A DNA stretch of 64,000 nucleotides, taken from NCBI GenBank assembly GCA_044224725.1, contig JBGAJW010000016.1:7055-71054 (forward strand). The letters are read 5' to 3'. Both the position numbers and the translations under genes were made by a program. The first letter of the stretch is position 1; every line of letters begins with the position of its first letter. The notes beneath the pieces were generated by a model, which searched no databases, was not told the DNA's origin, and saw only the letters and a program-made list of their open reading frames with translations. This DNA is from Flavobacteriales bacterium (GTDB taxonomy: Bacteria > Bacteroidota > Bacteroidia > Flavobacteriales_F > PHOS-HE28). Positions 32,659 through 57,707 of this stretch are shown here, piece by piece.

Positions 32659-32943
32659 GGTGAGGAGGGCCGCAAAGATAACCTTACGGACGCGCACTGG
32701 TCGCATACCGGTCCCGTCTCGGCCGCAGTCCCTTCCATCGAGTGCGCACAATGAACCAGTTCAATGGCGGCCCTGCGCCCCCATCGGACTTTTGTGCCCG
32801 ACACGTGGATCCCCATGGACCGCAAAAGCCAGATGGGCACAGGTGCAGCAGCCGTTACCGGAATTACGCTCGCCGATCAGCGGACCAACGATTTGCCAGT
32901 AGTGGTGTGCTTCAACCATTTGCCCTCGGAAAACCCGAAGATC

Positions 32944-33669
32944 ATGGCCAACACCGTCCTCCATAAAGCCGCTACCCGCGGCCACGCCGATCATGGCTGG
33001 TTGAACAGCCACCACACCTTCAGCTTCGCGAACTACTATGACCCGGAGCGTATGCACTTCGGCGTGCTCCGCGTGCTGAACGACGATACCGTGGCCCCCG
33101 GCATGGGCTTCGGCACGCATCCGCATGACAACATGGAGATCATCTCCATTCCGCTGGAAGGCGATCTGGAGCACAAGGACAGCATGGGCAACACCGCGGT
33201 GATCCGCAACGGGGACGTGCAGGTGATGAGCGCCGGCACGGGCATCCGCCACAGCGAGTACAACCGCAACAAGGAACAACTGGTGAAGTTCCTGCAGATC
33301 TGGGTCTTCCCGAACAAGCGGGATGTGGCACCACGCTACGACCAGATCACATTGGACGCGGCCAAGCGGCACAACAACCTCCAACAGATCCTGTCGCCCA
33401 ACCCCGAGGATGAGGGCGTGTGGATCCACCAGAACGCGTGGTTCCACTTGGGCACCTTCGACAAGGACTTCGCCACGACCTACGAGCTGAAAGACAAGCG
33501 TAACGGGGTGTACGTGTTCGTCCTCAGTGGGGACCTTACGGTGAACGGCATCCCACTGAACCAACGCGATGGATTGGGTGTTCAGGAGGCGCCTTCCTTG
33601 AACCTGAAGGCGGACAGCCAAGGTGCCGAAGTGCTGCTGATGGAAGTGCCGATGACCATTGAACAATGA
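32944..33669 (+). CDS. Pirin family protein (bicupin). The ORF is open from 32764.
   Basis: GHADHGWLNSHHTFSFANYYDPERMHFGVLRVLNDDTVAPGMGFGTHPHDNMEIISIPLEGDLEHKDSMGN is the classic pirin N-terminal cupin with its metal-binding His residues. Confidence 0.9.
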   Translation: MANTVLHKAATRGHADHGWLNSHHTFSFANYYDPERMHFGVLRVLNDDTVAPGMGFGTHPHDNMEIISIPLEGDLEHKDSMGNTAVIRNGDVQVMSAGTGIRHSEYNRNKEQLVKFLQIWVFPNKRDVAPRYDQITLDAAKRHNNLQQILSPNPEDEGVWIHQNAWFHLGTFDKDFATTYELKDKRNGVYVFVLSGDLTVNGIPLNQRDGLGVQEAPSLNLKADSQGAEVLLMEVPMTIEQ

Positions 33670-34348: not shown

Positions 34349-35503
34349 ATGAGGCCATTCCTGTTCGTACTCGGCGTCCTGGTCCTGCTGGTGCCCGAGA
34401 TCCTGCGGGTCTACTACATCATGCCCTTCCCCGGCAGCCAGGAGGACATGCCCACGGATCTGCGGCAAGTGGACATCGCCTACTGGCTGCACACCAATAT
34501 CTGGTGGGTGCGGTTCATCGGTCTTGCGCTGATCATCGGGCCGTTCATCCACTACCTGCGTACCGGCAACTGGAGGAAGCGGATAGCCGTGCTGTTACCT
34601 GTTACGCTCTGCGCGGTGGTGTTCTACGCGTTCAACTTCAAGTTCATGGCGGACAAGATGTTCTACCCGCCGAAGGTGAAGAACCTCGCCCCCGTCCCCT
34701 CTCCCGAGGAGAGGGGGGCCCTGCCCGATAGCGTCGCGAACCACTTGGTGATCGCCGTGGAACGCAATGGCGATGCGCGCGCTTATCCGATCGAACTCAT
34801 CGGCTACCACCACCAAGTGCTCGATACCATCGGTGGTGAACCAGTTCTGGTGACCTATTGCACCGTGTGCCGAACAGGCCGCGCTTGGAAGCCGGAAGTG
34901 AAGGGCCAACCGGAAACCTTCCGGCTTGTGGGTATGGACCATTTCAACGCCATGTTCGAGGACAGCCGCACGGGATCCTGGTGGCGTCAGGTGAACGGCG
35001 AGTGCATCGAGGGGCCATTGAAAGGACAACAACTCGAAGAAGTGCCGAGCCAACAGATGACGCTCGGTGAGTTCGCTTCGCGTCATCCGAAGGGGCTGGT
35101 GTTCCAACCGGACAGCAACTTCACCCAAGAGTACGCGGGGCTGAAGGGCTTCGATGATGGAACGATCGAATCTTCTCTCGAATACCGCGACACGGCAAGC
35201 TGGCAACCCAAGAGTTGGGTTGTCGGCGTGGTCCTCGATGGGCATGAGAGAGCGTATGATTGGAACTATCTCTCACGGAACGAGGTCATAAACGACACTT
35301 TAGGTGGTCAGTGCATCAAGTTGTCGACCGACTCTGCCACGGGATTCGATGGTCTGGTTGTGTTCTCGGAGGTATCCGACAGAGCAGATGGCTCGGGGAG
35401 AGATTCTACCTACGTTGAAATGAACATTCCTGCCTACCAGGAGTTCTGGCACAGCTGGCGCACCTTCCACCCGAACACCACGCGGTACGAGCCGAAGCGC
35501 TGA
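34349..35503 (+). CDS. DUF3179 domain protein with an N-terminal multi-TM region
   Basis: Three or four N-terminal TM helices. The DUF3179 core carries the VLVTYCTVCRTGRAW (CxxC) motif. A 21-nt palindromic element lies in-frame in this gene. Confidence 0.55.
   Translation: MRPFLFVLGVLVLLVPEILRVYYIMPFPGSQEDMPTDLRQVDIAYWLHTNIWWVRFIGLALIIGPFIHYLRTGNWRKRIAVLLPVTLCAVVFYAFNFKFMADKMFYPPKVKNLAPVPSPEERGALPDSVANHLVIAVERNGDARAYPIELIGYHHQVLDTIGGEPVLVTYCTVCRTGRAWKPEVKGQPETFRLVGMDHFNAMFEDSRTGSWWRQVNGECIEGPLKGQQLEEVPSQQMTLGEFASRHPKGLVFQPDSNFTQEYAGLKGFDDGTIESSLEYRDTASWQPKSWVVGVVLDGHERAYDWNYLSRNEVINDTLGGQCIKLSTDSATGFDGLVVFSEVSDRADGSGRDSTYVEMNIPAYQEFWHSWRTFHPNTTRYEPKR
34696..34716. repeat. Second identical copy of the 21-nt palindrome cccctctcccgaggagagggg, lying in-frame inside the DUF3179 coding sequence (it encodes PSPEERG)
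   Basis: Exact 21/21 match to 22998..23018, in a different context (intergenic versus coding). Confidence 0.6.
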
Positions 35504-35539
35504 TGCACTCATCACCGCATCTTCACATCCGCTCATTCC

Positions 35540-36007
35540 ATGGCCCACGACCCCCTCTTCGAACAGCGCATCGCCGACGCCCTGAAAGCCCAAGGTGCCA
35601 AGCCCGAGCACAAGAAGATGTTCGGGGGTGTGGCCTTCATGGTGAACGGCAACATGTCCGTCGGTATCACGAACAAGGGCGACTTCATGGCGCGCTTCGA
35701 CGGCGAGCGGCACGAGGAGATCCTTCAATGGCCGGGTGCAAAGCCCATGACCTTCGGGCACAAGAGCATGAAGGGCTTCCTCTTCGTGGATGCTGAGGCC
35801 GTGGAAAGCAGGGCCGCCTTGGACAAATGGGTGAAACTGTCCTTGGCCTATGTGAACGGGCTGCCCATGAAGGCGAACAAGGCTTCTGCCGCTTCGACAG
35901 CCAAGAAGCCCGCGAGCACGGTAAAGAAGAAGGTTGCCCCTGCCAACCCCGGTTCAAAGACCGGGGCAAGGCCCGGCAACAACCCTCGGAAGAAAAAGCC
36001 CGTATGA
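35540..36007 (+). CDS. TfoX/Sxy N-terminal-domain family protein with a Lys/Ala/Pro-rich C-terminal tail
   Basis: LFEQRIADALKAQGAKPEHKKMFGGVAFMVNGNMSVGITNKGDFMARFD matches the TfoX_N pattern. Confidence 0.6.
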   Translation: MAHDPLFEQRIADALKAQGAKPEHKKMFGGVAFMVNGNMSVGITNKGDFMARFDGERHEEILQWPGAKPMTFGHKSMKGFLFVDAEAVESRAALDKWVKLSLAYVNGLPMKANKASAASTAKKPASTVKKKVAPANPGSKTGARPGNNPRKKKPV

Positions 36008-36037
36008 GCGGCCCGGCCACATAACGGCCGTCCTATC

Positions 36038-36667
36038 ATGAGCGCACTCGCACAACTCGCTACCTCCTTGGGCCGTGCCGATGAACAGCCCAACATCGCG
36101 CTCGCTGAGCGTATCGTGCTGGACAAGGACGTGCCCGCCGTGCGTGAGCTGGTGGAGATCCTGAACGGCAAGGACAAAGCCCTGAAGAGCGACGCGTTGA
36201 AGGCGCTCTACGAGGTCGGCTACCGTTCGCCCGAGCTCATCGCCCCGTTCATCGCGCAATTCAAGAACTTGCTGGCGAACCCGGACAACAGATTGGTCTG
36301 GGGTGCCATGTGCGCCATCGATGGCATCGCCACGATCAAGCCGGATGCGGTGTACATGATCCTTCCACAGATCATGGCGGCCGTGGACCGCGGCACGGTG
36401 ATCACGCGCGACCATGCCGTGAAGACCCTCGCCAAGCTCGCCGCACAAGAGCGCTTCGCACGCACGGCCATGCCACTGCTGCTGGAACAATTGCGTACCG
36501 CGCCGTTGAACCAATTACCGATGTACGCTGAACTCGCCTCAGCCGTCGTGCTGCCACAGGACACCGCCACGATGCGTGCGATCCTGGAAACACGCCTGCC
36601 TGAATTGCCCAATGAGGCGAAGAAGAAGCGCGTGGAGAAAGCGTTGCGGAAGTTGCGCGCAGCATAG
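36038..36667 (+). CDS. Hypothetical HEAT/armadillo-like helical repeat protein (209 aa)
   Basis: All-alpha composition with repeated LxxLxxxL helices. It may be DNA-alkylation-repair (AlkD)-like, but that is not established. Confidence 0.35.
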   Translation: MSALAQLATSLGRADEQPNIALAERIVLDKDVPAVRELVEILNGKDKALKSDALKALYEVGYRSPELIAPFIAQFKNLLANPDNRLVWGAMCAIDGIATIKPDAVYMILPQIMAAVDRGTVITRDHAVKTLAKLAAQERFARTAMPLLLEQLRTAPLNQLPMYAELASAVVLPQDTATMRAILETRLPELPNEAKKKRVEKALRKLRAA

Positions 36668-36756
36668 GCTCGACGGTACGCAGACCGCGCCAATACCACA
36701 GATACGCCGCTGACCTGAACGCCGGTGGTGGGCGTCTGCCCTCCACTTCCATTGCT

Positions 36757-39339
36757 GTGCCGCATCTTCACGGCATGGAAGGTCTCGTGTTCCTGCTCGC
36801 GCTGGTGCCCATCGCACTGCTCGTTCTGCTGATCATCAACATCAGCAAGATGAACGGGCTGCGCGAAGAAGTGCGCCTGATGCGCCTGCAGATGCAGGAG
36901 CTGATGAAGTCCTTGGCCCAACGGCCCGCTGGCCCTCCGCCGCCTGCGAAGGAGGCGTCTCCTGTTCAGGCTCCTCCTGCCCCAACGCCACAGACAACCG
37001 TTGTTGTTCCGCCCCCAACTCCTGTCCCTTCGAGCGAAGCCGAAAAACCTCCTCCTCCGGCACCGCCACCGGTCGTCATCGTCCCACCCCTTCGCACCGA
37101 GCCGCTCCATGCTTTGCGCGAAGAGTTGCGTGAACAACAGTCAGCGGCGGCCCACAAACCGACCGCTGTTCCGGAGAGGGTCATCATCGCGCCGCCGCCA
37201 CCAAGGCCCCCTCCGCCGCCCGCGCCACCGAAGCCTTCCTTCCTCGACCGCAATCCGGACCTGGAGAAATTCATCGGCGAGAACCTGATCAACAAGATCG
37301 GCATCACCATCCTGGTGCTCGGGTTGGGCTTCCTGCTGAACTGGGCTATTGACAAGGGCTATATCAGCGAGACCGCGCGCACGCTCATCGGTGTCGGTAG
37401 CGGAGGTGCGCTTATCCTCCTTGCCCACCGGTTGCGGGAGAAATTCCGCGCGTTCAGTTCCGTGCTCGTGGGTGGTGGATTGGCGGTGCTGTACTTCACC
37501 ATCGCCTTCGCTTACCGGGTATATGAGATCATTCCGCAAGCGCCGGCCTTCCTGGTCATGGCAGGCATCACGGGGCTCGGGGTTCTGCTCACCTTGGTGT
37601 ACGACCGTCGCGAACTGTCGGTGATAGCGCTGCTCGGCGGTTTCGCGGCCCCGTTCCTGACGAGCCGTGGCGATGGCAACTACGTCGTGCTCTTCAGCTA
37701 TCTGCTCATCCTGAACACGGGCATGCTGGTGCTGGCGAACTACAAGAAGTGGCACCTGATCAACGTGATCGCCTTCCTGCTCACCTCGGCCATTTTCGGT
37801 GGCTGGCTGAGTATGCGCTTCCTCGATCTGGAGCCGCGACCAGTGTGGCCCGCGATGGGCTTCGCGACGGCCTTCTTCCTGGTGTTCTTCATCATGAACC
37901 TGCGTTACAACCTGAAGCACGGCTCACAGTTCGTTGCGCTGGACTTCTCGTTGTTGTTGGCGAATACCGCGGTGTATTTCGCGGCCGGGCTTTCGATACT
38001 CCAGAACGTGAAGCCTTCGCTCGATGGCCTCTTCGTCATCGTGCTCGCTGCTTTCCATCTGGTGTTCGCGTGGATGTTCCACCAGCGCGCCAACGCACCG
38101 AAGCACTTGGTATTCCTGCTGATCGGCCTGGTGCTCACCTTCCTCAGCTTGGCAGGGCCGCTCCAGTTGCACGGTGATCACATCACGCTGTTCTGGGCGG
38201 CGGAGTGCGTGTTGCTCTTGTGGTTCTCGCAGCGCACGGGCATCCGCTTGGTGGAACGCGCGAGCATGCTGGTCGTCGTGCTCATGCTCATCAGCTTGGT
38301 GATGGACCTCGCGAAACACTACGGCGAAGTGCCGTTGATCCGATTGACGCCCTTGGTGAACAAAGCGTGGATCACCGGCATGGTAGCGGCCATCGCGCTC
38401 TTCCTGTACGGCCGACTCTGTACGCTGTTGCCCGCCGATCGCTCCGTTCTTCCGGGGCTCTCACCGAAGCTTCTCCGCAATTCCGCATGGGTGCTCTGCG
38501 CGGCAACGGCCTATGGGGTGAACTTCCTGGAGATCGGCCATCAGCTCGGCTTCATGCTGGGCGCGAATGTGGTCGTCATGGCGCTCGCGGCCTATTCGCT
38601 CGCAGCGTTCGCGGGGATGCACTTCATCGCCCGCACAGCCGGCCGTGCGATGAGCATTGCGGTGCTCGCGCTGCTCACCCTTGGTCTCTTGCACTACATC
38701 ACGGGGTTCTATTCCAACAGCATCCATGCGCTGCTCGATGTGCGCACCAACGCAGGCGGGGATGGCTTCGCGGTGTTCCATATCGCCGCGTTCATCGCCG
38801 CGGTCCTCGCGTTGGTTTGCGTTGTGCGAACGGTGCGAACGATCGTTGCGAAGAACTCACCGGCTTGGACGCTCTACGTGTGGAGCATCTGTGTGTTCCT
38901 GGTGTTCTTCGCCAGCCAAGAGCTTGACCATGCGATGCTGGCCGTTATCGCACCGACCACCTATGATGTGGGAGCGGACAACTGGGCGGAGGGTGCCGAT
39001 CAACGCTACGCGCTCATCGATGCTCTGCACTCGGCGCGAAAAGCGGGCTACCCGATCCTTTGGGGGCTCGGCTCCTTCGTGTTGATGTGGTACGGCATGC
39101 GCATGCGCCAACGCATGGTGCGCGTCATCGCTCTATCGCTCTTCGGCCTCACGCTGTTGAAGCTGTTCATCTACGACCTCAGCGGTATCAGCGAGGGGGG
39201 GAAGGTGGCGGCGTTCATCTGCCTCGGCATCATCCTGCTCGTGGTGAGCTTCATGTACAACAAGCTGAAGCTGCTGTTGAAGGAAGATGCGGGATCAGTG
39301 GACCAGAAGATCAGAGGATCAGAAAATGGACCGGCTTAG
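36757..39339 (+). CDS. DUF2339-like large polytopic membrane protein with an N-terminal Pro-rich linker
   Basis: 860 aa. One N-terminal TM is followed by a low-complexity PPPPAPTP.../PPPPRPPPPPAPPKP segment, then about 20 TM helices. Confidence 0.55.
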   Translation: MPHLHGMEGLVFLLALVPIALLVLLIINISKMNGLREEVRLMRLQMQELMKSLAQRPAGPPPPAKEASPVQAPPAPTPQTTVVVPPPTPVPSSEAEKPPPPAPPPVVIVPPLRTEPLHALREELREQQSAAAHKPTAVPERVIIAPPPPRPPPPPAPPKPSFLDRNPDLEKFIGENLINKIGITILVLGLGFLLNWAIDKGYISETARTLIGVGSGGALILLAHRLREKFRAFSSVLVGGGLAVLYFTIAFAYRVYEIIPQAPAFLVMAGITGLGVLLTLVYDRRELSVIALLGGFAAPFLTSRGDGNYVVLFSYLLILNTGMLVLANYKKWHLINVIAFLLTSAIFGGWLSMRFLDLEPRPVWPAMGFATAFFLVFFIMNLRYNLKHGSQFVALDFSLLLANTAVYFAAGLSILQNVKPSLDGLFVIVLAAFHLVFAWMFHQRANAPKHLVFLLIGLVLTFLSLAGPLQLHGDHITLFWAAECVLLLWFSQRTGIRLVERASMLVVVLMLISLVMDLAKHYGEVPLIRLTPLVNKAWITGMVAAIALFLYGRLCTLLPADRSVLPGLSPKLLRNSAWVLCAATAYGVNFLEIGHQLGFMLGANVVVMALAAYSLAAFAGMHFIARTAGRAMSIAVLALLTLGLLHYITGFYSNSIHALLDVRTNAGGDGFAVFHIAAFIAAVLALVCVVRTVRTIVAKNSPAWTLYVWSICVFLVFFASQELDHAMLAVIAPTTYDVGADNWAEGADQRYALIDALHSARKAGYPILWGLGSFVLMWYGMRMRQRMVRVIALSLFGLTLLKLFIYDLSGISEGGKVAAFICLGIILLVVSFMYNKLKLLLKEDAGSVDQKIRGSENGPA

Positions 39340-40570
39340 AACCCTTGGCGCATTGACCGGCGTTCTGGCCGCGTTCCTCGCGCAGGCACAACCGCAGTGG
39401 AGCGCTCCCCTCGCACCTGTTGAACGCGATGGCTACTACACCATCGTGCTGTCGCCGGAAGTGGTCGGGCGCTCGCGGGAAGACCTGTCCGACCTGCGCT
39501 TGCTCGACTCGTCCGGAAAGGAAGTAGCCTACCTGATCGAGCGCGAGCCCACTATGTATGAGCGCACATGGATGCGTTCCTACAAGCTGCTGCGTAATGA
39601 ACGCATCAAGCGCACGACCATTATCGAAATGGAAGCCGACAGCGCAGCCATGGTGGACGAGCTCCTCGTGCGGGTGCGCAACGCACGGGTGAGCAAACGC
39701 GCGCGCATCACCGGCAGTGATGACCGTGCGGACTGGTACATGATCCTGGACGAATGCCTCGCCGTGGGCGAAGGCGATGGTGAGACGAGCGTGCTCCGCT
39801 TCGTGGACCTTCCCTTGAGTGACTACCGCTACTACCGGATCGTGCTGGATGATTCGATGAGCGCGCCCGTTCAAGTATTGGATCTCGGACACAGCGCACG
39901 TGCGCGTAGCGAAGGGCAGTACACTCCCATCGATGGGCTCGAATTCTCCCGGACGGAAGACCGCTCGACAACACGCATCGCATTGCATGGTGGCTCGCCA
40001 TTCAGCGCCGACCGTCTCGTGTTCGACATCCGCAGCGATGTGCCCTTCCGACGGCAGGGACGATTCACCCGGCATGTCAGGTACACAACGCGGGAACGCA
40101 AGCGCGAAGTGATCCGAACGACGGAAGAACAACTCGGCGACTTCTCGCTCACACGGACTTCGCGCGGGAAGGTGACGGCACCCGGCAATATCACGGATAC
40201 GCTCTTCGTCCTGATCGAGAACGGCAATGACCAGCCGCTCGACATCACCGGAATCCGGGCTTTCCAGCTCGAACGGCGCGTGATCGCGAAATTGAACGCC
40301 GGTGGTCGTTACACCATCACTACCGCTGATGCGAAGGCGCACATGCCGCGCTACGACATCGCGCATTTCCGGGACAGCCTGCCATCCTCCATCGGTGTGC
40401 TGAATATCCCTGCGATGTCCGCGAGACCCATCACGCCCAAAGGCGGTCCTTCTTTTGCGCCGTCGATGAAATGGGTGTGGGCGGCGATCATCGGCCTTGG
40501 CGCGATCATCGCTTTCTCGGCGGTGCGGTTGCTGCGGCGCTCTTCAACAACAACGGATCGAACGGAATGA
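39326..40570 (+). CDS. DUF3999-like secreted protein, translationally coupled to the preceding DUF2339 gene
   Basis: Signal peptide (LGALTGVLAAFLAQAQP). A DUF2339 gene followed by a DUF3999 gene is a known conserved pair. There is a C-terminal TM (WVWAAIIGLGAIIAF). It overlaps the upstream gene by 14 nt. Confidence 0.5.
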   Translation: MDRLRTLGALTGVLAAFLAQAQPQWSAPLAPVERDGYYTIVLSPEVVGRSREDLSDLRLLDSSGKEVAYLIEREPTMYERTWMRSYKLLRNERIKRTTIIEMEADSAAMVDELLVRVRNARVSKRARITGSDDRADWYMILDECLAVGEGDGETSVLRFVDLPLSDYRYYRIVLDDSMSAPVQVLDLGHSARARSEGQYTPIDGLEFSRTEDRSTTRIALHGGSPFSADRLVFDIRSDVPFRRQGRFTRHVRYTTRERKREVIRTTEEQLGDFSLTRTSRGKVTAPGNITDTLFVLIENGNDQPLDITGIRAFQLERRVIAKLNAGGRYTITTADAKAHMPRYDIAHFRDSLPSSIGVLNIPAMSARPITPKGGPSFAPSMKWVWAAIIGLGAIIAFSAVRLLRRSSTTTDRTE

Positions 40571-42324
40571 ATACGCGTATCGTCGTTCTCGTGTTGGTCA
40601 TTGGCTTGTGGGCGCGACATGTCGAGCCGCTACATGCACAATGCCCGGGTTGCGTCGCGAACCTCGCCTGCATCGCTGACCCGGCCTACCCCACGCTGTG
40701 CCCCACCCAACCGCCGGACGCCACGGCCGGTGAACCCTACGCGGCCGATATCACCTTCTGGTTGCCGGACAACTTCACCGACCCCGGTACCGGTTTCAAT
40801 GTCGACTTCCTGATCATGACCATCACCGGCGTGAGCGGGCTGCCGTACGGGCTGGACATCACGTACAGCGACGCTTTGGGCATCTACTATCCACAGGAGA
40901 ACCAGTACGGCTGCGCCCGCATCTGCGGCACCCCGGTGGGCGCCGGCACTTTTACCATAAGCATCAGCATCATCGCGCATGTGGCGTACAACGGGTTCGA
41001 ACTGAACGCGCTGCAACAATTCCCGCTCACGCTCGTGGTGCAGCCCGGAACAGGAAGCAATACCGGCTTCAATTTCACCCCGACCACAGGATGCGGAACA
41101 GCCGATGTGCAGCTGGACGCGGTGATCGACGGCCAGGGCGCCCCCGTGACCTACGCGTGGGACTTCGGCAATGGGAATACCGGCACGGACGGATCGGCGC
41201 TCCAACACTACGATGCGCCCGGCTCCTACTCCATCTCGTTGCAGACCACGATCGGCGGCTACGTGCTGAACAACGTGAACGTGGGCGGGGTGAGCGACAA
41301 TTGGTGCGGTGATGTGGAGGAGCCCAGCCTTTTCGGCGCATGCACCGGCGACCCGGACCTATACTTCATCCTCACGGACGGCAACGGCAACAGCTACACC
41401 AGTTCCGCGAACGACAATTCCGGCTCCGCCAGTTGGTCCAACGTGGACCAATTGCTCGCGACACCCCCGTATTCCATCGCCTTCTTCGATGAGGATGTGA
41501 TCAGCCAGGACGATGACCTCGGCACGTTCAACATTCCGCCCGGCAGCGTTGGAACGGTGCCGTTCACCTTGGGCAATGGCACCAACGGCAGCTTGCAGAT
41601 CGACCTCTTGCCTCAGCAAGTGTTCAACGATACGGACACCGTGGTGGTCTTCGCCGCACTACTGCCGAGCCTGTCCTATGACACGCTCACGGCGCAGCTT
41701 TGCGTGAGCGATACCGGGCTCGTGGGAATCACGTGGTTCAACGATGGCGATACGGCTATCACGGGTGCCCTCTGCCTGGACGCCGACAGTTCCGGGACCT
41801 GGTGGGCGGTTGTGAACAACGCGTTCGGCTGCTCCACGGCCACGGACACGGTCATCATCTGTCCGCAGATCATCATCGAACAGAGCGGCAATGTGCTGTT
41901 CACCGAGACCGGTCTGGACGACTACCAATGGAGTTTGAACGGGGCCCCGATCTCCGGCGCTGACGGTCCCTTTCTGGTGGCCGAGACCGGCGGGCTCTAT
42001 ACGGTGAGCGCCACGAACGCGGATGGATGCTCGTTGACGGCCGAGTTCCAGCTCGTGATCATGGGGGCCTTGCCCACGGACGATGTCGGACCGGCCGTGG
42101 AGGTGTTCCCGAACCCGACCAAGGGGGCTTTTACCGTACACGTGGAACAAGCTGGATCCCTCTCCGTCCTTGGTGCGCAAGGACACCAAGTGCTCGCGGC
42201 CAGGAGGGCTTCTGGTGCGGGGAACGTGGTCTTCGAGGCAGGAATGCTCGCTCCGGGCACCTACTATCTCTGGTTGGAAACGGAAAAGGGGCGGAGCGTC
42301 TCGCGCATGTCCATCCTGCCCTGA
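40567..42324 (+). CDS. T9SS-secreted protein with a PKD domain
   Basis: ATGA overlap with the upstream stop. Signal peptide is present. A PKD-like segment is present (VTYAWDFGNGNTGTDGSALQHYDAPGSYSISLQT). The C-terminal T9SS domain is (VFPNPTKGAFTVHVEQAGSLSVL...GTYYLWLETEKGRSVSRMSIL). Confidence 0.7.
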   Translation: MNTRIVVLVLVIGLWARHVEPLHAQCPGCVANLACIADPAYPTLCPTQPPDATAGEPYAADITFWLPDNFTDPGTGFNVDFLIMTITGVSGLPYGLDITYSDALGIYYPQENQYGCARICGTPVGAGTFTISISIIAHVAYNGFELNALQQFPLTLVVQPGTGSNTGFNFTPTTGCGTADVQLDAVIDGQGAPVTYAWDFGNGNTGTDGSALQHYDAPGSYSISLQTTIGGYVLNNVNVGGVSDNWCGDVEEPSLFGACTGDPDLYFILTDGNGNSYTSSANDNSGSASWSNVDQLLATPPYSIAFFDEDVISQDDDLGTFNIPPGSVGTVPFTLGNGTNGSLQIDLLPQQVFNDTDTVVVFAALLPSLSYDTLTAQLCVSDTGLVGITWFNDGDTAITGALCLDADSSGTWWAVVNNAFGCSTATDTVIICPQIIIEQSGNVLFTETGLDDYQWSLNGAPISGADGPFLVAETGGLYTVSATNADGCSLTAEFQLVIMGALPTDDVGPAVEVFPNPTKGAFTVHVEQAGSLSVLGAQGHQVLAARRASGAGNVVFEAGMLAPGTYYLWLETEKGRSVSRMSILP

Positions 42325-42458
42325 ACGCTGGCAGGCGCCGAGTGTACCATCCACACCGGCCTGTCCGGATCTAACATCTGTTCACAGGCTGCGCCCTTGC
42401 CATCCCTCTACATTCGGCCAACATTCCCCGCGCTGGCGCGTTCCTTGACCGTCAGCCT

Positions 42459-45400
42459 ATGCCTATGGCTTCCGACTACAATCTCCTGATCGAAAAGCTG
42501 GATGCCTTCATCCGCAAGTACTACAAGGACCGGCTGATCCGCGGGGCCTTGTACAGCGTTGGCCTGCTGGTTCTCTTTTTCCTGGGCGCATCGCTCAGCG
42601 AGTATTTCGGTCGCTTCGGCACCACGGCACGCACGGTGCTTTTCTGGGGCTTCTTGTTCGTGGCCGCCGGTGTGCTGGCGCGCTTCATCGTTTTCCCGCT
42701 CGTGAAGCTGTTGCACATGGGCAAGGTGATCTCGCATGATGAGGCCGCCGCCATCGTTGGCCAACACTTCGGGGAGGTGAAGGACAAATTGCTGAACACC
42801 TTGCAACTGCGCGAGCAGGCGAACAGCAACTTCATGCAGCGCGAGCTCATTGAGGCGAGCATCGCCCAGCGCAGCCGGGAGCTGTCGCCTTTACCCTTCA
42901 CCGCAGCCATCGATCTGAGCAAGAACCGCAAGTACCTCCGCTATGCCTTGCCGCCATTGGCCGTGCTGCTCGTCCTGCTTTTCGCCGCACCGAGCCTGAT
43001 CACCGATCCGGCCAACCGCATCATCAAACACAGCAGCGAGTTCGCGCCGGATGCGCCCTTCCAATTCACCGTGCTGGACAGCAGCCTCACCGTGCCGGAG
43101 CAGGAGGACTTCGACCTGCACGTGGAAGTGAGCGGCGATGTGATCCCCCAACAGGTGGAACTCGACATCAATGGACAGCGCATCCCGCTGGTGAAACAGG
43201 ACGCCGTCCACTTCACGCACCGCTTCCGCAATGTGCAGGAGGCGATCGATTTCCGCCTCAGCGCCGAAGGCTTCAACAGCAAAGGCTACACATTGGAAAC
43301 CGTGAGCAATCCGATGCTCACCGACCTCGCCTTGCGCTTGGAATACCCGCCCTACCTCGGCATGCCGAACACCACCACGAACGGCAATGGCGATGTGACC
43401 GTTCCCGCCGGTACGCGCATCACGTGGACCGCCAACACGCGCAGCACGGACGAACTCGTGCTGGCGTTCGACGACACGACCTTCTCGCTCGAACCCCAGA
43501 GCGATAACGCCTTCATCGCCTCGCGCCGTTTTTTGCAAAGCCGCACCTACACGCTCGTGCCGCGCAAAGGCGACCGCGCCGCGCAGAACCCCTTGCAGTA
43601 CCGCGTGGATGTCGTGCCCGACCTATACCCCACCATTCTCGTGGAGCAGAAAACGGACAGCACTTCACCCAAGCGTCTCTACTTCAAAGGCGATATCGGT
43701 GATGACCACGGCTTCAAGCGCCTCATCTTCCATTACGGCTTCAGCGAAGGCGGGGACAGTGTGACCACCGAACAACGCGAGGGCACCAAGGAACTTCCCA
43801 TCGATGGCAAGAACACGCGCCAAGAGTTCTTCCATTATTGGGACCTGAGCGATCTGCGACTGGAGCCCGGTGACAAGCTGGAGTACTGGTTCGAGGTATG
43901 GGACAACGACGGTGTGCATGGCAGCAAGAGCGCCCGCAGCGGGACCCAGGTCTTCGAAGCGCCCACGTTGAAGGAACTCGCCGAGAAACAGGACGCCGAC
44001 GCCGAAGCGGTGAAGGACCAGTTGAAGGAGAGCATCAAGGACGCGCAGGAACTGCAGAAGGAACTGGACAAGCTGCGCCGCGAGATGCTGGACAAGAAAG
44101 AACTGAACTGGCAGGACAAGCAGAAGATGGAGAACGTGATGCAGAAGCAGAAGCAGCTGCAGGAGCGGATCGAGAAGACCACCGAGCAGTTCAAGCAGAA
44201 CAACCAGGAGCAGCAGAGCTTCAAGCAGATGGATGAGCGCCTGTTGCAGAAGCAGCAGCAGGTGCAAGAGCTTTTCGAGAACGTGCTGAGCGAGGAGATG
44301 AAGAAGCTCTACGAGGAGGTGCAGAAGCTGATGGAGCAGATGAACAAGGAGGAGCTCCAAGCGAAGATGGAGGACATGAAGATGAGCCAGGAGGACATCG
44401 AGAAGGAGCTGGACCGCGCGATGGAGCAGTTCAAGCAGATGGAGGTGGAACAAAAGGCCGAGGACATCGCCGAGCAATTGGAAAAACTCGCGGAAGAGCA
44501 GAAGAAGCTGGCCGAGGAAACCAAGAACGAGACCGGCGACAACAGCGAACAGAAACAGAAGCAGGAGGAACTGAACAAGGAGTTCGAGGACATCCAGAAA
44601 CAACTGGACGAACTGGAGAAGAAGAACAGCGAGCTGGAGAAGCCCATGGACCTGCCGAAGACGGAGGAGCAGGAAGAGGAGATCAAGAAAGAGCAGGAAG
44701 GCAGCCAGGAGGACATGGAGAAGAAGGAGAACGGCAAGGCCGGTGAGAAGCAGCAGAAGGCCGGTGAGCAGATGGAACAGATGGCCTTCCAGATGAAGAG
44801 CGCGATGGGCGCGAACGAGCAGGAAGAGCACGAAGAGGATATGGACGCTTTGCGCCAACTCCTGGAGAACATCGTGGAGCTGAGCTTCGATCAGGAGGCC
44901 GCCATGAACGATCTGGGCCGCACCGCGCCCAAGGATCCGCACCTGGTGGACATCGGTCGGCAACAGAAGAAGATGCGCGACGACGCCAAGGTCATCGAGG
45001 ACTCGCTCTTTGCTTTGAGCAAGCGCGTGCCCCAACTGCAGGCCGCCGTGAACCGCGAGATGAACGCCGTGAACGAGAATATGGACCAGGCCATGGAGCA
45101 CCTGGCGACCAGTCGTGCGGACATGCGCGGAAAACCCCAAGCGGCGGACAAGCAGCAACGGGCCATGACCGGCCTGAACAACCTCGCACTGCTGCTGGAC
45201 GAAGCCCTTCAGCAGATGCAGGCGGAGCCGCCCCCCGGCCCGCCCGGCAGCGGCAAGTGCAAGAAGCCCGGCGGCAAGGGCAGCAGCGCCGGTGAAAGCA
45301 AGAAGATGGCCAAGACCAAGGCCAACCAGAAGGCCTTGAGCAAGCAGCTCGAAGAGATGAAGAAGGCCTTGGAGAAGGGCAAGAAGCCCGGCGACAAACC

Positions 45401-45893
45401 CGGCCAATCGCCCGGAGAGAAGCCCGGAGCCGATGGCAAGCCGGGCGGAATGGGACTGCCGGGCATGAGCCAGCAACTGGCCCAGCTCGCCGCGCAACAG
45501 GCCGCCATCCGCAAGGAGATGCAGCGCGCGGCGCAGGAACTGAACAAGGACGGCAGCGGTGCCGGACAGCCCCTGCAGAAGCTCGCCGAGGAGATGGAGA
45601 AGAACGAGAAGGACATCGTGAACAAGAACATCACCCAGGAGACCCTGAAACGCCAGGAGGACATCATGGTGCGCCTGTTGGAGGCCGAGAAGAGCGAGCG
45701 CGAACGCGAGCTGGACCAGAAGCGCGAGAGCAACGAAGGCCGCGAGACCCCCCACGCCGATCCCGCCCGCTTCTTCGACTACCAGCGCAACAAACAGCGC
45801 GAGGCCGAACTGTTACGAACAATGCCACCGGGATTGAAGCCCTACTACAAGGCGAGGGTCGCTGAGTATTTCGATACTTTTGGCCGACCCTGA
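42459..45893 (+). CDS. DUF4175-like giant membrane-anchored coiled-coil protein (1144 aa)
   Basis: N-terminus YNLLIEKLDAFIRKYYKDRLIRG is followed by 2-3 TM helices, a roughly 350-aa globular region, and about 600 aa of E/K/Q-rich coiled-coil with a Gly/Pro/Lys low-complexity segment. Confidence 0.5.
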   Translation: MPMASDYNLLIEKLDAFIRKYYKDRLIRGALYSVGLLVLFFLGASLSEYFGRFGTTARTVLFWGFLFVAAGVLARFIVFPLVKLLHMGKVISHDEAAAIVGQHFGEVKDKLLNTLQLREQANSNFMQRELIEASIAQRSRELSPLPFTAAIDLSKNRKYLRYALPPLAVLLVLLFAAPSLITDPANRIIKHSSEFAPDAPFQFTVLDSSLTVPEQEDFDLHVEVSGDVIPQQVELDINGQRIPLVKQDAVHFTHRFRNVQEAIDFRLSAEGFNSKGYTLETVSNPMLTDLALRLEYPPYLGMPNTTTNGNGDVTVPAGTRITWTANTRSTDELVLAFDDTTFSLEPQSDNAFIASRRFLQSRTYTLVPRKGDRAAQNPLQYRVDVVPDLYPTILVEQKTDSTSPKRLYFKGDIGDDHGFKRLIFHYGFSEGGDSVTTEQREGTKELPIDGKNTRQEFFHYWDLSDLRLEPGDKLEYWFEVWDNDGVHGSKSARSGTQVFEAPTLKELAEKQDADAEAVKDQLKESIKDAQELQKELDKLRREMLDKKELNWQDKQKMENVMQKQKQLQERIEKTTEQFKQNNQEQQSFKQMDERLLQKQQQVQELFENVLSEEMKKLYEEVQKLMEQMNKEELQAKMEDMKMSQEDIEKELDRAMEQFKQMEVEQKAEDIAEQLEKLAEEQKKLAEETKNETGDNSEQKQKQEELNKEFEDIQKQLDELEKKNSELEKPMDLPKTEEQEEEIKKEQEGSQEDMEKKENGKAGEKQQKAGEQMEQMAFQMKSAMGANEQEEHEEDMDALRQLLENIVELSFDQEAAMNDLGRTAPKDPHLVDIGRQQKKMRDDAKVIEDSLFALSKRVPQLQAAVNREMNAVNENMDQAMEHLATSRADMRGKPQAADKQQRAMTGLNNLALLLDEALQQMQAEPPPGPPGSGKCKKPGGKGSSAGESKKMAKTKANQKALSKQLEEMKKALEKGKKPGDKPGQSPGEKPGADGKPGGMGLPGMSQQLAQLAAQQAAIRKEMQRAAQELNKDGSGAGQPLQKLAEEMEKNEKDIVNKNITQETLKRQEDIMVRLLEAEKSERERELDQKRESNEGRETPHADPARFFDYQRNKQREAELLRTMPPGLKPYYKARVAEYFDTFGRP

Positions 45894-45902
45894 ATTCCGC
45901 CC

Positions 45903-46340
45903 ATGGGAGCCTTGATCGAGGACGTGCAATACACCCAACGGATCGACTTCCCCGCGAAAGCGGAGAACATCGCGCTGGCCGAGAAACTCATCGATGAGGC
46001 CTGCCAAAAGCACGGCGTCCACGAGAGCCATTACGGCAACATCCTCATCGCCCTTACCGAGGCGGTGAACAACGCCATACACCATGGCAACCGGTTGGAC
46101 CCCGCCAAGAGCGTGGGCCTCGGCTACCAGATCAAAGGCGACCAGATCGTCTTCGTGGTGAGCGACGAGGGACCGGGCTTCGACTTCCAGCACCTCCCCG
46201 ACCCCACCGACCCACAGAACATCGAGAAGCCCCACGGTCGTGGCGTCTTCCTGATGCGCGCCCTGGCCGACAGCGTGGAGTTCAGCGACAACGGCAGCAC
46301 GGTGGCCATGGCCTTCAGCCTGCAGCCGGTGAAGGAGTGA
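45903..46340 (+). CDS. RsbW/SpoIIAB-like anti-sigma regulatory factor (HATPase_c_2 Ser/Thr protein kinase)
   Basis: LTEAVNNAIHHGN (N-box), VSDEGPGFD (G1 box) and HGRGVFLMRALADSVEF (G2 box). It is a standalone 145-aa protein. Confidence 0.7.
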   Translation: MGALIEDVQYTQRIDFPAKAENIALAEKLIDEACQKHGVHESHYGNILIALTEAVNNAIHHGNRLDPAKSVGLGYQIKGDQIVFVVSDEGPGFDFQHLPDPTDPQNIEKPHGRGVFLMRALADSVEFSDNGSTVAMAFSLQPVKE

Positions 46341-46765
46341 TGGCCACCCGCGGCCACATCGCGTTCATCGTCCATCAGGTCCCGTCAGCATTCCGTGAGC
46401 GAGAGCGCTTGCGCAAATGGCTCACCGCCGTAGCGAAGGACCATGGGCATAGCATCGGTGAGCTGAACTACGTGCTGATGAGCGACAAGGACCTGTTGAA
46501 GTACAACCGCGAGTTCCTTCAGCACGACGAGTTCACGGACGTCATCACCTTCGACGGCCAGACCGGCACTGGGGTGAGCGGCGATGTGCTCATGAGCCTG
46601 GACCGTATCACGGACAACGCGAAGACCTTCGGCGTGAGCGCACAGCACGAATTGCGACGCGTGATGGTGCACGGGCTCTTGCACCTGCTCGGGCACAGCG
46701 ACAAGAGTGCGGCCAAGCGAAAAGCGATGAGCGCGCTGGAGGACAAGTACCTGGCGCGGTACTGA
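46337..46765 (+). CDS. ybeY: rRNA maturation endoribonuclease YbeY
   Basis: HGLLHLLGHSD metal-binding motif (H-x-x-x-H-x-x-G-x-x-H). Size 142 aa. ATGA overlap with the upstream gene. Confidence 0.85.
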   Translation: MMATRGHIAFIVHQVPSAFRERERLRKWLTAVAKDHGHSIGELNYVLMSDKDLLKYNREFLQHDEFTDVITFDGQTGTGVSGDVLMSLDRITDNAKTFGVSAQHELRRVMVHGLLHLLGHSDKSAAKRKAMSALEDKYLARY

Positions 46766-46821
46766 CAAGAGCGCCGATGACGCGGCGTGCAGAGGTTCTT
46801 ACCGCAGAGGGCGCCGAGGGA

Positions 46822-46870
46822 CGCAGAGACTGAAGCTCAAGCTCGTTGAAACGATTGGAATTTCTCTGCG
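46822..46870. terminator. Inverted repeat CGCAGAGA ... TCTCTGCG between the convergent ybeY and histidine-kinase genes. It is a candidate bidirectional terminator.
   Basis: 8-bp arms with a 33-nt spacer, located in the 139-nt convergent intergenic region. Confidence 0.3.
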
Positions 46871-46904
46871 GTTCTCCGCGCACTCAGCGGTTCAATTGTC
46901 GCGG

Positions 46905-48680
46905 TCAGGCGGGGAACAGCAGCGTGAAGGTGGTGCCTTTGCCCAACTCGCTGTCCACCGAAAGCAGCACCCCGTGCGCATTGAAGATGTTGCGCGCCTC
47001 CGTAAGCCCAAGGCCCATGCCGCCTTTGCGGCCGCTGAAGAAGGGCTGGAAGATGCGCTCGCGGTCCTCCGCGCTCATGCCTTTGCCGTTGTCGCGGATC
47101 GTCACCTGCACACGGTTCTTCACACGCTCGGAACGGATCTCCAATCGGCCATTCCCCTCCTCCATCGCCTCCACGGCGTTCACGAGCAGGTTGGTGAAGG
47201 CCACCGTCAATGTCGATCGATCGATGGGTACGGTCCCCAATGAGGGGTCGAGCCGCAGTTCGGCTTCCGCCTTCCGCAATTCACACCGGTCCTTCACCCG
47301 CGCAAACGCATCGGCCAGTACCTCGTTCAGAGAGCCCTGCTCCATTTTCATTTCCAGCGGTCGGCTGGTGTGCAGCATCTCGGTGATCAACTGCCCGATG
47401 CGGTGCGAGTTGCGGCGCAGGATATCGAGGTAGATCTGCTGCTCGGGCAATTGCGTGCCCTCGGATTCCAGCTGGTCCAAGGCCAGTTGGATGTTCGTGA
47501 GCGGATTCCGCACTTCATGCCCCACCATGCGTGCGAAGCGACCGGTCACGCTCAAGCGCTCGCCCTCCGCCACCAGGATCGCCTGGCGCTTCGCTTCGGT
47601 GATATCCGTGAAGGTGACCACCATGCCGTCCAACAACCGCACGGCCGAAACGGCCAATGTGGTGGTCTGTCCATCGCGCGTGTATTCGCTCTCGGTCTTG
47701 AGCGGCTCACCTGTTTCCACCAAACGGATGTACTGGTTGAAGAGCACCGAATCCCTGTTCTCGGGATTCACGTCCAGGATGCTGCGATGTAGCATCTCTT
47801 CGGCCTTCTTGTGCACGATGGTCTCCGCGGCCTCGTTCATTCGCGTGCATTCAAAGTCCACGATCCTGCCCCGCTCATCACGGATGGCGCGGAAGGCCAT
47901 GATCCCGCTTTGCGAACTGTCAAGTACGCGTTTCAAGCTGCGTTCGGCGATCTCGCGCGTGCGGGCCTCCTGATCGAGTTCGGCGGCCGTGCGCAACGCT
48001 TTCCGCTCCGCGTGCTGCGCGCGCACCAGCGCTCGGAACATCCACCACAGCAGCACCCCGATGCACAGGACGGACACGCCGGCGTATACCGCCACCATGC
48101 CGGGGCCCGTGAACACCAGGTCCCTGCCCTTGGCCTCCTGCTCGCTCAATCGTTCGGTGTAGCGATCCATCAACGAACGGTGCGCGATGCGCAATTGGTC
48201 CATGCTCTGCTTGCCCAAGCGGAAGAGGATACTGTCCGGGCGGCCCAACGGTACCGTGCCCAAGCGCTGGTCGCGCACACGCTGCTCGAGGTATTGCATC
48301 CGGAGTTCTATCCGCGAGCGCAGCACGGCCAGCCCCGACCCGGATCCGGTGTCCGGAGCCAGCAGCACCGCCAGTTCCGCGAGGTGCGGGGCCAAGGTGG
48401 CTTTCGCGGTGGTGTAAGGCTCCAAGTATGCGCTGTCATTGGAGAGCATGAAGCCGCGCGTCCCCGTTTCGGCATCCTTCACGATGGACAGCACCTCATC
48501 CAGATCGCGGAGCACCCTGTGCGAATGCAGGATCTCCTGGTTCTGTCGCACGTAGCCCACCAGGTTCCGGTAGGTTATAGCGAGCAACACGAGCATGACC
48601 AGAACGCTCGTGACCGCGAGGCTCTTCAGCAACAGGTTATAGCGGCCTTGGCGGCGTATGGTCTCTGGTCTGAGGGGCAT
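46905..48680 (-). CDS. Sensor histidine kinase with an N-terminal CHASE3 domain, a PAS domain and a HisKA-HATPase core
   Basis: Two TM segments flank a CHASE3-like periplasmic region. A PAS-like segment is present. The H-box is FARMVGHEVRNPLTNI, the N-box NLLVNAVEA, and G-boxes DNGKGM / GGMGLGL. Confidence 0.8.
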   Translation of the reverse strand: MPLRPETIRRQGRYNLLLKSLAVTSVLVMLVLLAITYRNLVGYVRQNQEILHSHRVLRDLDEVLSIVKDAETGTRGFMLSNDSAYLEPYTTAKATLAPHLAELAVLLAPDTGSGSGLAVLRSRIELRMQYLEQRVRDQRLGTVPLGRPDSILFRLGKQSMDQLRIAHRSLMDRYTERLSEQEAKGRDLVFTGPGMVAVYAGVSVLCIGVLLWWMFRALVRAQHAERKALRTAAELDQEARTREIAERSLKRVLDSSQSGIMAFRAIRDERGRIVDFECTRMNEAAETIVHKKAEEMLHRSILDVNPENRDSVLFNQYIRLVETGEPLKTESEYTRDGQTTTLAVSAVRLLDGMVVTFTDITEAKRQAILVAEGERLSVTGRFARMVGHEVRNPLTNIQLALDQLESEGTQLPEQQIYLDILRRNSHRIGQLITEMLHTSRPLEMKMEQGSLNEVLADAFARVKDRCELRKAEAELRLDPSLGTVPIDRSTLTVAFTNLLVNAVEAMEEGNGRLEIRSERVKNRVQVTIRDNGKGMSAEDRERIFQPFFSGRKGGMGLGLTEARNIFNAHGVLLSVDSELGKGTTFTLLFPA

Positions 48681-56183: not shown

Positions 56184-57707
56184 TCATTCCACCACCAATT
56201 TGCTCCCCGCCAACCATCTCTTCGTATCCCGCAAATGCAAGTAGTACGTGCCTGCCGGTAGTGCGCTCACAACCAATGTGGCCCGTAGAAGGTTGAGGTT
56301 CTGTTGTACGGATTGCTCCAACACCAAGCGACCGGTCTCATCCAGTAGCTGCGCCTGTACCTGCCCCTCAACCTCGCCCCCTTCAGGCAGGTCCAATACC
56401 ACACGTACCACATCACTCGCCGGGTTGGGGCTTAGGCGCAGCAGCTTTTGCAGGTCCATCACGTACTCCTGCACCCCTACGTTCTGGCAGCCGGGCACTA
56501 CACAGCCCAGGCTGTCGGTCTTGATCACAAAGATGGTTTCCATATTGGGGGTGGGATCCTCCAAGGTCTGGAACAACAAACCAGTGAGCAGGAAACCTCC
56601 ATCACTGGTCGGCTCTACATCGTAGGGCCAATGGTCGCCCATGTTGTTGAATACCGTCAGATGGCGGGACCATAGGCTATCGCCTGTAGCGGCGTACTTG
56701 GCCAGTTCCGTGTACCAGCTGTAAATGCCACAAGCAATGATCGTTTGGTCCTGGAGGATCTCGAAATCCCTGGGGAAGGCTTGATAAAAATAGTGCGACC
56801 GAGTCTCCCAGATTATATTCCCGGATGGATTCCTTTTGATAAGATCATACTGCGCCCACCCCCAAGGCCAATTGACCTCGCGGTACTCAGTGCAGGACAC
56901 AATACCACCATCGGCTGCCACACGCACTGCTCCACTACCACCTCCGTTGTCACCGAAGAAACGACGCCAGATCTGATTTCCCAGGCTATCCGTGCGTATC
57001 AGCCAGCCCAAATTCGTAAGATTACCTGGCAATCGATAACCAAGCAACAGGAAGCCGCCATCTGTGTATTGCGCTACCCCCATGCCCTCGTATAGTTGGT
57101 CCGGCGCACCGTATGTGCGCTCCCATTCTAGGAGCCCTGTACTGTCCAATTTGACCAGCATTGCGCTACCGGACGCACCCAGTGTATCGCGGAACCCGCA
57201 GTAGACAAAGCCACCATCGCTCGTTTGTCGCATCTGGCGGGTTCCAACAAGATTCGAGTCAGCTGGGTCCGAGGTCATCACCGACACTGGCGGCAACATG
57301 TTCCCAAGAGCATCAAAACGTGCAAGATCAATCGTGAAATCGTATCCATTGAAATGTTGCACAGTTGACGCGAAGCCGCCGCTATTCATCTTGGCCACCG
57401 GATCGTGGAACCCAAAATTTGAATGATAGTTTTCCCCTGTCCCTAGCTCGTATTTTTCTTGGAAGGCGCCATCGGGTCCAAGCTTGTAGACCACGCATCG
57501 GGTTCGTCCGGTACCATCATTCGACACTTGGTGACCGAATACTACAAAGCCGCTATCAGTTTCAAAGATGGATCGCCCACTGGCATCACGCCCATCCTGA
57601 ACAGCATTCATTTCGACAATAAAGCTGCTCTGGCAGGGAGCATGGTTGCTCCCTGCCAGAACCACAATCAACAGCGCGGACGAACGCATCATTTCGCGAT
57701 CGTGCAT
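56184..57707 (-). CDS. T9SS-secreted beta-propeller protein
   Basis: Signal peptide (SSALLIVVLAGSNHAPCQS). Repeated DGGF/W-containing blades. The C-terminal sorting domain is (LRLSPNPASDVVRVVLDLPEGG...GTYYLHLRDTKRWLAGSKLVV). Confidence 0.6.
   Translation of the reverse strand: MHDREMMRSSALLIVVLAGSNHAPCQSSFIVEMNAVQDGRDASGRSIFETDSGFVVFGHQVSNDGTGRTRCVVYKLGPDGAFQEKYELGTGENYHSNFGFHDPVAKMNSGGFASTVQHFNGYDFTIDLARFDALGNMLPPVSVMTSDPADSNLVGTRQMRQTSDGGFVYCGFRDTLGASGSAMLVKLDSTGLLEWERTYGAPDQLYEGMGVAQYTDGGFLLLGYRLPGNLTNLGWLIRTDSLGNQIWRRFFGDNGGGSGAVRVAADGGIVSCTEYREVNWPWGWAQYDLIKRNPSGNIIWETRSHYFYQAFPRDFEILQDQTIIACGIYSWYTELAKYAATGDSLWSRHLTVFNNMGDHWPYDVEPTSDGGFLLTGLLFQTLEDPTPNMETIFVIKTDSLGCVVPGCQNVGVQEYVMDLQKLLRLSPNPASDVVRVVLDLPEGGEVEGQVQAQLLDETGRLVLEQSVQQNLNLLRATLVVSALPAGTYYLHLRDTKRWLAGSKLVVE

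Follow-up and report, generated by a model that had tools for sequence, protein, structure and literature searches.

An Arc3A/Arc3B-like gene pair and a probably separate type IX secretion cargo gene overlap in a Flavobacteriales genome

In the window analysed here, a 64-kb stretch of DNA from a Flavobacteriales bacterium, three open reading frames (ORFs) occupy positions 36757-42324, all listed on the + strand: a DUF2339 gene (gene A), a DUF3999 gene (gene B) and a gene for a protein with a PKD domain and a sorting signal of the type IX secretion system (T9SS) (gene C). Their downstream neighbours are called genes D and E. An earlier sequence-only reading had described three same-strand genes joined by overlaps of 14 and 4 nucleotides (nt), and the junction coordinates agree with this. 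The TAG stop codon of A (39337-39339) lies within B, which starts with ATG at 39326, resulting in the 14-nt overlap, and the TGA stop of B (40568-40570) shares the sequence ATGA with the ATG of C at 40567. The gap between C and D is 134 nt, with D beginning at 42459. Each of the three has numerous full-length homologues: 3494 hits were obtained with A, and the homologues of B form 64 protein clusters and those of C more than 120. A, B and C are thus real genes and not chance ORFs. The genes and their parts are:

36775..39339, + strand: gene A, Arc3A-like polytopic inner-membrane protein of 854 amino acids (aa), based on PF10101, hydropathy, homologue starts and public gene calls
36781-36837, + strand: N-terminal transmembrane (TM) helix of A, followed by a short helical segment
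36910-37269, + strand: Pro-rich linker of A
37276-39264, + strand: DUF2339 domain of A with about 19-21 TM segments
39326..40570, + strand: gene B, Arc3B-like (DUF3999) protein of 414 aa
39326-39388, + strand: predicted signal peptide of B, without lipobox
about 39398-40324, + strand: two discoidin/CBM32-like beta-sandwich domains of B
40466-40552, + strand: predicted C-terminal TM anchor of B
40567..42324, + strand: gene C, T9SS cargo protein of 585 aa
40567-40638, + strand: signal peptide of C with predicted cleavage at LHA/QC
40639-41061, + strand: Cys-rich N-terminal beta domain of C
41095-41250, + strand: PKD domain of C
41299-41652, + strand: predicted C2-like domain of C
41659-42066, + strand: two further beta-sandwich domains of C
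42103-42321, + strand: type A T9SS C-terminal domain of C

The sequence-only reading had given A a length of 860 aa, which corresponds to a start at GTG 36757. This start was rejected in favour of ATG 36775, which is supported by the N-termini of homologues and by gene calls: all 17 homologues listed have M as first residue and E, D or V as second (ME[GA] in 14 of the 17), and the gene calls of public assemblies have 854 aa. The domain, the approximately 20 TM segments and the Pro-rich linker that the same reading had assigned to A were all found. For C, a start further upstream at ATG 40471 (617 aa) was rejected, because alignments of orthologues begin at the start of the 585-aa form.

The overlaps suggest that A, B and C are probably co-transcribed in the window genome. 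Scans for promoters and terminators in 35400-47000 yielded counts not above those of shuffled sequence, with no site in the intergenic gaps, and the -7 motif of Bacteroidota, TANNTTTG, occurs twice in the whole window, in neither case upstream of A, C or D. Overlaps of 4 nt are common between neighbouring genes in the window, with further examples at 773/776, 11751/11754 and 33666/33669, including the gene pairs pirin/nitroreductase and TPR/DUF4292.

Protein A matches PF10101 (DUF2339) along profile positions 1-658 of 659 (E=1.5e-83, 282.1 bits at a cut-off of 33.6), and B matches PF13163 (DUF3999) with 37.9 bits at a cut-off of 30, confirming both Pfam assignments that had been made from the sequence alone. 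A Kyte-Doolittle scan of A revealed one N-terminal TM helix and about 19-21 further hydrophobic segments; the linker between them (residues 46-165) consists of 33% Pro, and this N-terminal architecture of TM helix and linker is kept in homologues. NCBIfam contains no match for A, B or D, no solved structure related by sequence to any of these three was found, and PADLOC returned no match among A-E. A adjoins B in all 22 loci in which this could be tested, showing that the DUF2339/DUF3999 pairing is strongly conserved, as had been stated before. A metagenome scan with the B alignment gave 12 loci only, most of them short.

That the pair has no known function, as the sequence-only reading had it, is out of date. 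PA5114 and PA5113 of Pseudomonas aeruginosa are arc3A and arc3B, forming antagonism resistance cluster 3 (Ting et al., eLife 2022, PMC8926400), and genetics and lipidomics have shown that they protect P. aeruginosa against phospholipases of the type VI secretion system (PMC8926400; bioRxiv 10.1101/2024.10.26.620397). Homologues were defined there by Pfam 10101 for Arc3A and by an adjacent Pfam 13163 protein for Arc3B (PMC8926400). Since A and B score above the gathering cut-offs of PF10101 and PF13163 and are encoded by adjacent, overlapping genes, they are Arc3A/Arc3B homologues by this definition; on sequence grounds they are new and divergent members of the family from Bacteroidota/Flavobacteriales.

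In P. aeruginosa, arc3A is the most critical gene for survival of Tle3, a phospholipase delivered by the type VI secretion system, and its loss leads to accumulation of lyso-phosphatidylethanolamine and monolyso-cardiolipin, as observed by lipidomics (PMC8926400). Arc3A and Arc3B co-immunoprecipitate in this organism, and the functional unit of Arc3 in Proteobacteria comprises one or two genes (PMC8926400). A second study reported that arc3A also protects against TseL of V. cholerae and Tle1 of A. baylyi (bioRxiv 10.1101/2024.10.26.620397). As possible mechanisms, the authors proposed that the TM helices of Arc3A sequester lysophospholipids, with their turnover, or alternatively that Arc3A interferes with the lipase (PMC8926400). 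By homology with P. aeruginosa Arc3, the most likely function of A-B is to keep lysophospholipids from accumulating and thereby to shield the cytoplasmic membrane from damage of the phospholipase-A type. The A-B unit would reside in the cytoplasmic membrane and limit the build-up of lysophospholipids after such damage, with B acting as an accessory that binds A.

The likeness to P. aeruginosa Arc3 extends to the gene arrangement, in which a polytopic DUF2339 membrane gene is located upstream of and next to a DUF3999 gene on the same strand, and to the retention of the pair as a unit. B also resembles Arc3B in that its N-terminus is exported and its C-terminal part contains a TM helix. There are differences as well. 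PA5114 has 35 predicted TM helices, whereas A has about 20 segments by hydropathy, and a further difference, the N-terminal TM helix with the Pro-rich linker, is common to the Bacteroidota homologues examined. Control by Gac/Rsm is specific for gamma-Proteobacteria and does not apply here. Unlike PA5113, which is a predicted lipoprotein, B carries a signal of the signal-peptidase-I type with Gln at +1 and no lipobox.

In the model of B (AlphaFold2, predicted local distance difference test 83.4), a signal peptide is followed by two beta-sandwich domains and, at the C-terminus, by a helix. This helix is hydrophobic at residues 384-402, spans residues 381-409 in the model and is conserved across the alignment of B homologues. 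The N-terminal 25 residues contain no Cys in B and none in 20 of the 21 aligned homologues of the clade (the exception being P0139), and a conserved AQ-P.W follows the hydrophobic core of the signal region. With no Cys in its signal region, B is predicted to be a periplasmic protein held in the inner membrane by its C-terminal helix, not an envelope-spanning one, and an outer-membrane tether is not predicted. The outer-membrane lipoprotein signal is a trait of Pseudomonas PA5113 and not of the Pfam family PF13163. A distant homologue of B has a Pfam F5_F8_type_C domain; however, the identity of B to CBM32 and F5/F8 type C (discoidin) domains is about 10%, a level at which no ligand can be inferred and the resemblance may be that of generic beta-sandwiches.

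Exported proteins of Bacteroidota prefer Gln at +1. In both B and C, the residue that follows the predicted cleavage site of signal peptidase is Gln, AQA/Q in B (39326-39400) and LHA/QC in C (40567-40645), and both sites fit this preference. The residue is invariant in the aligned C orthologues and kept in most B homologues.

It is possible, if rather unlikely, that A-B is not equivalent to Arc3 and has a membrane role of another, housekeeping kind in Bacteroidota, such as lipid homeostasis or envelope biogenesis, and not a role in antagonism defence. The identity to Proteobacterial-type pairs is remote, with about 26-27% between the window proteins and A and B of locus L090, and B does not have the lipoprotein anchor of P. 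aeruginosa Arc3B. The neighbouring genes are of the housekeeping type; arc3 is often neighboured by aas/lplT (PMC8926400), but no aas/lplT gene was found among the large ORFs of the window. In addition, lysophospholipids from normal metabolism may be the substrate according to the authors of the P. aeruginosa study (PMC8926400). On the other hand, divergent Arc3A homologues from four other Proteobacteria complement the P. aeruginosa delta-arc3A mutant, suggesting an intrinsic, conserved activity (PMC8926400), and the architecture of the pair is conserved in the window. The housekeeping and defence roles are not mutually exclusive, having the prevention of lysophospholipid build-up as their common core.

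The description of C as a 585-aa PKD protein with a T9SS signal was borne out. PKD_4 (31.6 bits, cut-off 27) and PKD (26.3 bits, cut-off 23.5) both exceed their Pfam thresholds. The T9SS C-terminal domain is borderline, scoring below the Pfam cut-off (23.6 bits, cut-off 27) and above that of TIGR04183 (24.2 bits, cut-off 23), and a profile of C orthologues matches solved T9SS C-terminal domains with E=9.6e-6. The N-terminus is hydrophobic and contains a conserved A/QC. C belongs to a family of full-length proteins of about 585 aa whose members in uncultured Flavobacteriales, at 44-97% identity, fall into more than 120 protein clusters; remoter members with 33-38% identity are encoded in metagenome-assembled genomes of the Chitinophagales type. 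Many Cys residues are invariant in the family, as are the motifs NWCGDVEE, PDxYF and DxDxxSxxDxLG.

Like T9SS type A cargo proteins (TIGR04183/PF18962; for instance gingipains and mirolase), C has a Sec signal peptide, beta-sandwich modules including PKD and a sorting domain of about 70 aa, and the window also encodes PorZ, a component of the T9SS (26978-29338, - strand). Unlike the named cargo proteins, C contains Cys-rich N-terminal and C2-like domains, its C-terminal score is borderline and no catalytic domain was detected in it. C would be exported by Sec and subsequently by the T9SS, after which it may be attached to the surface or released. Three further genes for cargo with a T9SS C-terminal domain are located at 7050-8282 (+ strand), 19314-20876 (+ strand) and 56184-57707 (- strand); one of them contains Laminin_G_3, one a weak DUF4438 match, and one is unannotated. 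The window thus has at least four such genes, about one per 16 kb, showing that T9SS cargo genes are dense in this genome.

The predicted fold and the motifs suggest that residues about 245-362 of C form a C2-like domain. The Pfam C2 profile (PF00168) found no match in C even at E<=10. When a profile of this region was compared with PDB sequences, the top 12 matches were C2 proteins, with sub-threshold E-values of 0.07-0.6, and the 13th was a pectate lyase. The C2 matches align on the SDPY-like and DxDxxSxxDxxG motifs of C. The acidic loop residues align with the motifs of the plant CAR proteins 5a52 and 5a4x; the alignment with perforin covers this region too, and that with synaptotagmin-1 just the loop-3 motif. 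Among 18 orthologues, D264, D308, D310, S313 and D316 show no variation, and the region is predicted to adopt the eight-stranded beta-sandwich fold of C2 domains. The SDPY-like motif and the DxDx5D of loop 3 we take to be the Ca2+-binding loops of such a domain.

As in C2 domains of the eukaryotic type (synaptotagmin, perforin, ferlins, cPLA2, plant CAR), it is PDxYF and DxDxxSxxDxLG of C that align with the Ca2+-binding loops. Unlike them, C has a similarity below Pfam detection and is a bacterial, extracytoplasmic T9SS cargo, the domain being known here from sequence and prediction. Judging from predicted fold and motifs, the domain probably binds lipid in a Ca2+-dependent manner, and C would thus bind membranes or lipid at the surface. 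A full-text literature search combining "C2 domain" and "type IX secretion" returned nothing relevant.

To see how often C accompanies the pair, 80 species-representative loci of C orthologues were surveyed, in which the window proteins were placed by tblastn; loci with at least 1.3 kb upstream were scored for B (n=72) and loci with at least 1.5 kb downstream for D (n=71). B, together with A, adjoins C upstream in 7 of the 72 loci, and D adjoins C downstream in 36 of the 71. In many C loci without A-B, the genes located upstream in the window (DUF3179, TfoX and a 209-aa gene) are found right next to C. The 209-aa gene, which in relatives lies immediately upstream of A, is directly upstream of C without A-B in L009, L013, L025 and L026, abutting C in the first two.

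Conversely, A-B without C was found in seven loci (L087, L088, L089, L096, L099, L103 and L104). The pair sits among unrelated neighbours in L087, L088 and L104, and the order in L089 (5543-13626) is A-B-D-E-YbeY. The synteny of the window is preserved in L103 (GCA_009612815.1, WBZS01000004.1; 8001-16140), where PorZ, pirin, nitroreductase, DUF3179, TfoX, the 209-aa gene and A-B are followed by D-E-YbeY, with C absent. L103 and L089 share synteny with the window on both sides and resemble a clean natural "deletion" of C. Among the nine informative loci found with A or B as query, two contain C.

The order A-B-C is present in the clade of the window (L004, L005, L007, L076, L091, L092), in a second clade (L018, L019, L021, L022, L032) and in L074, which is placed in neither tree. 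In neighbour-joining trees, the window clade has this order, apart from L009 as a single nested loss, and so do one or two other clades. Close relatives have a B-C spacing of -4 to about 0 nt, compared with about 30-340 nt in the other loci, showing that only the closest relatives have the ATGA coupling. The PKD gene is thus not absent from this neighbourhood in all relatives: it is found next to the pair in the window's own clade, but it is not a conserved neighbour across relatives.

We therefore consider it probable that two separable units are present, an Arc3-type A-B module and an independent T9SS cargo gene C, both located in a syntenic block that became more compact in this lineage. 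The old block would have consisted of the 209-aa gene, A-B, C, D, E and YbeY, from which A-B and C were each lost or moved independently, and membership in this block would be the reason why C adjoins A-B. Compaction in the window lineage would then have resulted in the overlapping, probably co-transcribed genes observed.

Several points weigh against this interpretation. A-B-C is found in two or more distinct clades in the B tree as well as in the C tree, and the tight overlaps in the window clade may reflect selection for co-expression. The C2-like, lipid-binding fold predicted for C is in keeping with the involvement of Arc3 in lipids and may point to a facultative connection. The neighbourhood counts score adjacency at the C locus, and a genome scored without A-B there may carry the pair elsewhere. 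Concerning the Arc3 assignment, the DUF3999 match of B is modest, with its best-matched stretch at the N-terminus (residues 26-92), and Arc3 function has been demonstrated in Proteobacteria only, the role in Bacteroidota being assigned by homology.

The genes flanking the trio are:

36038..36667, + strand: 209-aa gene with weak helical-repeat matches (Adaptin_N, DVU0298 family)
42459..45893, + strand: gene D, 1144-aa protein with three N-terminal TM helices, a beta-rich domain and a coiled coil, and a weak DUF4175 match (Pfam, 32.2 bits)
45903..46340, + strand: gene E, 145-aa HATPase_c_2 protein of the anti-sigma-factor kinase type (PF13581, 101.9 bits)

Downstream of C orthologues, D is the gene found most often, and E travels with D and YbeY in relatives, as seen from synteny. 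C could therefore belong with D and E in a surface-to-membrane or regulatory unit, A-B being an unrelated upstream neighbour, which we regard as unlikely. C-D-E(-YbeY) is indeed the commonest order, occurring in the 36 of 71 species representatives across most of the C tree, and the same order is found in L001, where C has 47% identity. However, about half of the C loci, including whole clades, have no D within 1.5 kb, and in L089 and L103 D-E-YbeY directly follows B without C, so that D-E is as independent of C as A-B is. Furthermore, C and D do not overlap but are separated by about 100-140 nt, and the only domain match of D is the weak one to DUF4175. The coiled coil of D comprises about 550 aa and is rich in Glu, Lys and Gln. 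The repeats in the region reflect only its codons, and the codon usage of D causes a spike in AT skew (0.495) at 44-46 kb.

The sequence-only reading had combined A in the inner membrane, B in the periplasm and C at the cell surface into one interdependent, envelope-spanning module of three components. The overlaps at both junctions, the retention of A-B-C in the window clade, the second clade and L074, and a C2-like domain that would suit the lipid role of Arc3 speak for such a module. Nevertheless we judge it quite improbable, because A-B is not adjacent in 65 of the 72 C loci, A-B occurs without C in seven loci including the fully syntenic L103, and C accompanies the pair in two of the nine loci found from the A or B side. 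The overlap is gone outside the closest relatives, with B-C gaps of about 100-340 nt in distant ones, B of this clade is without an outer-membrane lipid anchor, T9SS cargo genes are frequent in this genome, and Arc3 of Proteobacteria functions with one or two genes (PMC8926400).

Least likely of all, slightly below the obligate module, is that the Arc3 pair of this lineage has recruited C as a co-expressed, T9SS-exported C2 protein forming the outer layer of a defence against membrane damage by phospholipases. In this case C would attach at the surface, in a Ca2+-dependent manner, to phospholipid or lysophospholipid that is exposed or foreign, or to membranes decorated with lipase; if true, this would give Arc3 a first accessory component and bacteria a rare example of a functional C2 domain.

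Elsewhere in the window, a 795-aa protein with a C-terminal CHAT (caspase-like) domain is encoded at 4581-6968 (+ strand), preceded by a large ORF without Pfam match (3849-4577). Two 301-aa ORFs mirror each other at 32761-33666 (- strand) and 32764-33669 (+ strand), the latter being pirin; the antisense one, like many other long antisense ORFs of the window, appears to be a by-product of the G+C content of 60%. An Rfam scan of the window revealed one tRNA and nothing more.

The main value of this analysis is a negative one, namely that the three-layer module is unsupported by comparative genomics. Beyond this, the DUF2339/DUF3999 pair should be annotated as Arc3A/Arc3B-like, a label that points to defence against phospholipase effectors and to lysophospholipid control in an uncultured group of Flavobacteriales from activated sludge and freshwater. 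The clade variant of B shows that the outer-membrane lipid anchor predicted for Arc3B is not universal, which constrains models in which Arc3B bridges both membranes. Finally, a well-conserved family of T9SS cargo labelled "PKD domain protein" appears to hold a canonical Ca2+-binding C2 domain that was previously unannotated, and this predicted assignment leads to the biochemical hypothesis that these proteins bind lipid at the cell surface in a Ca2+-dependent manner.

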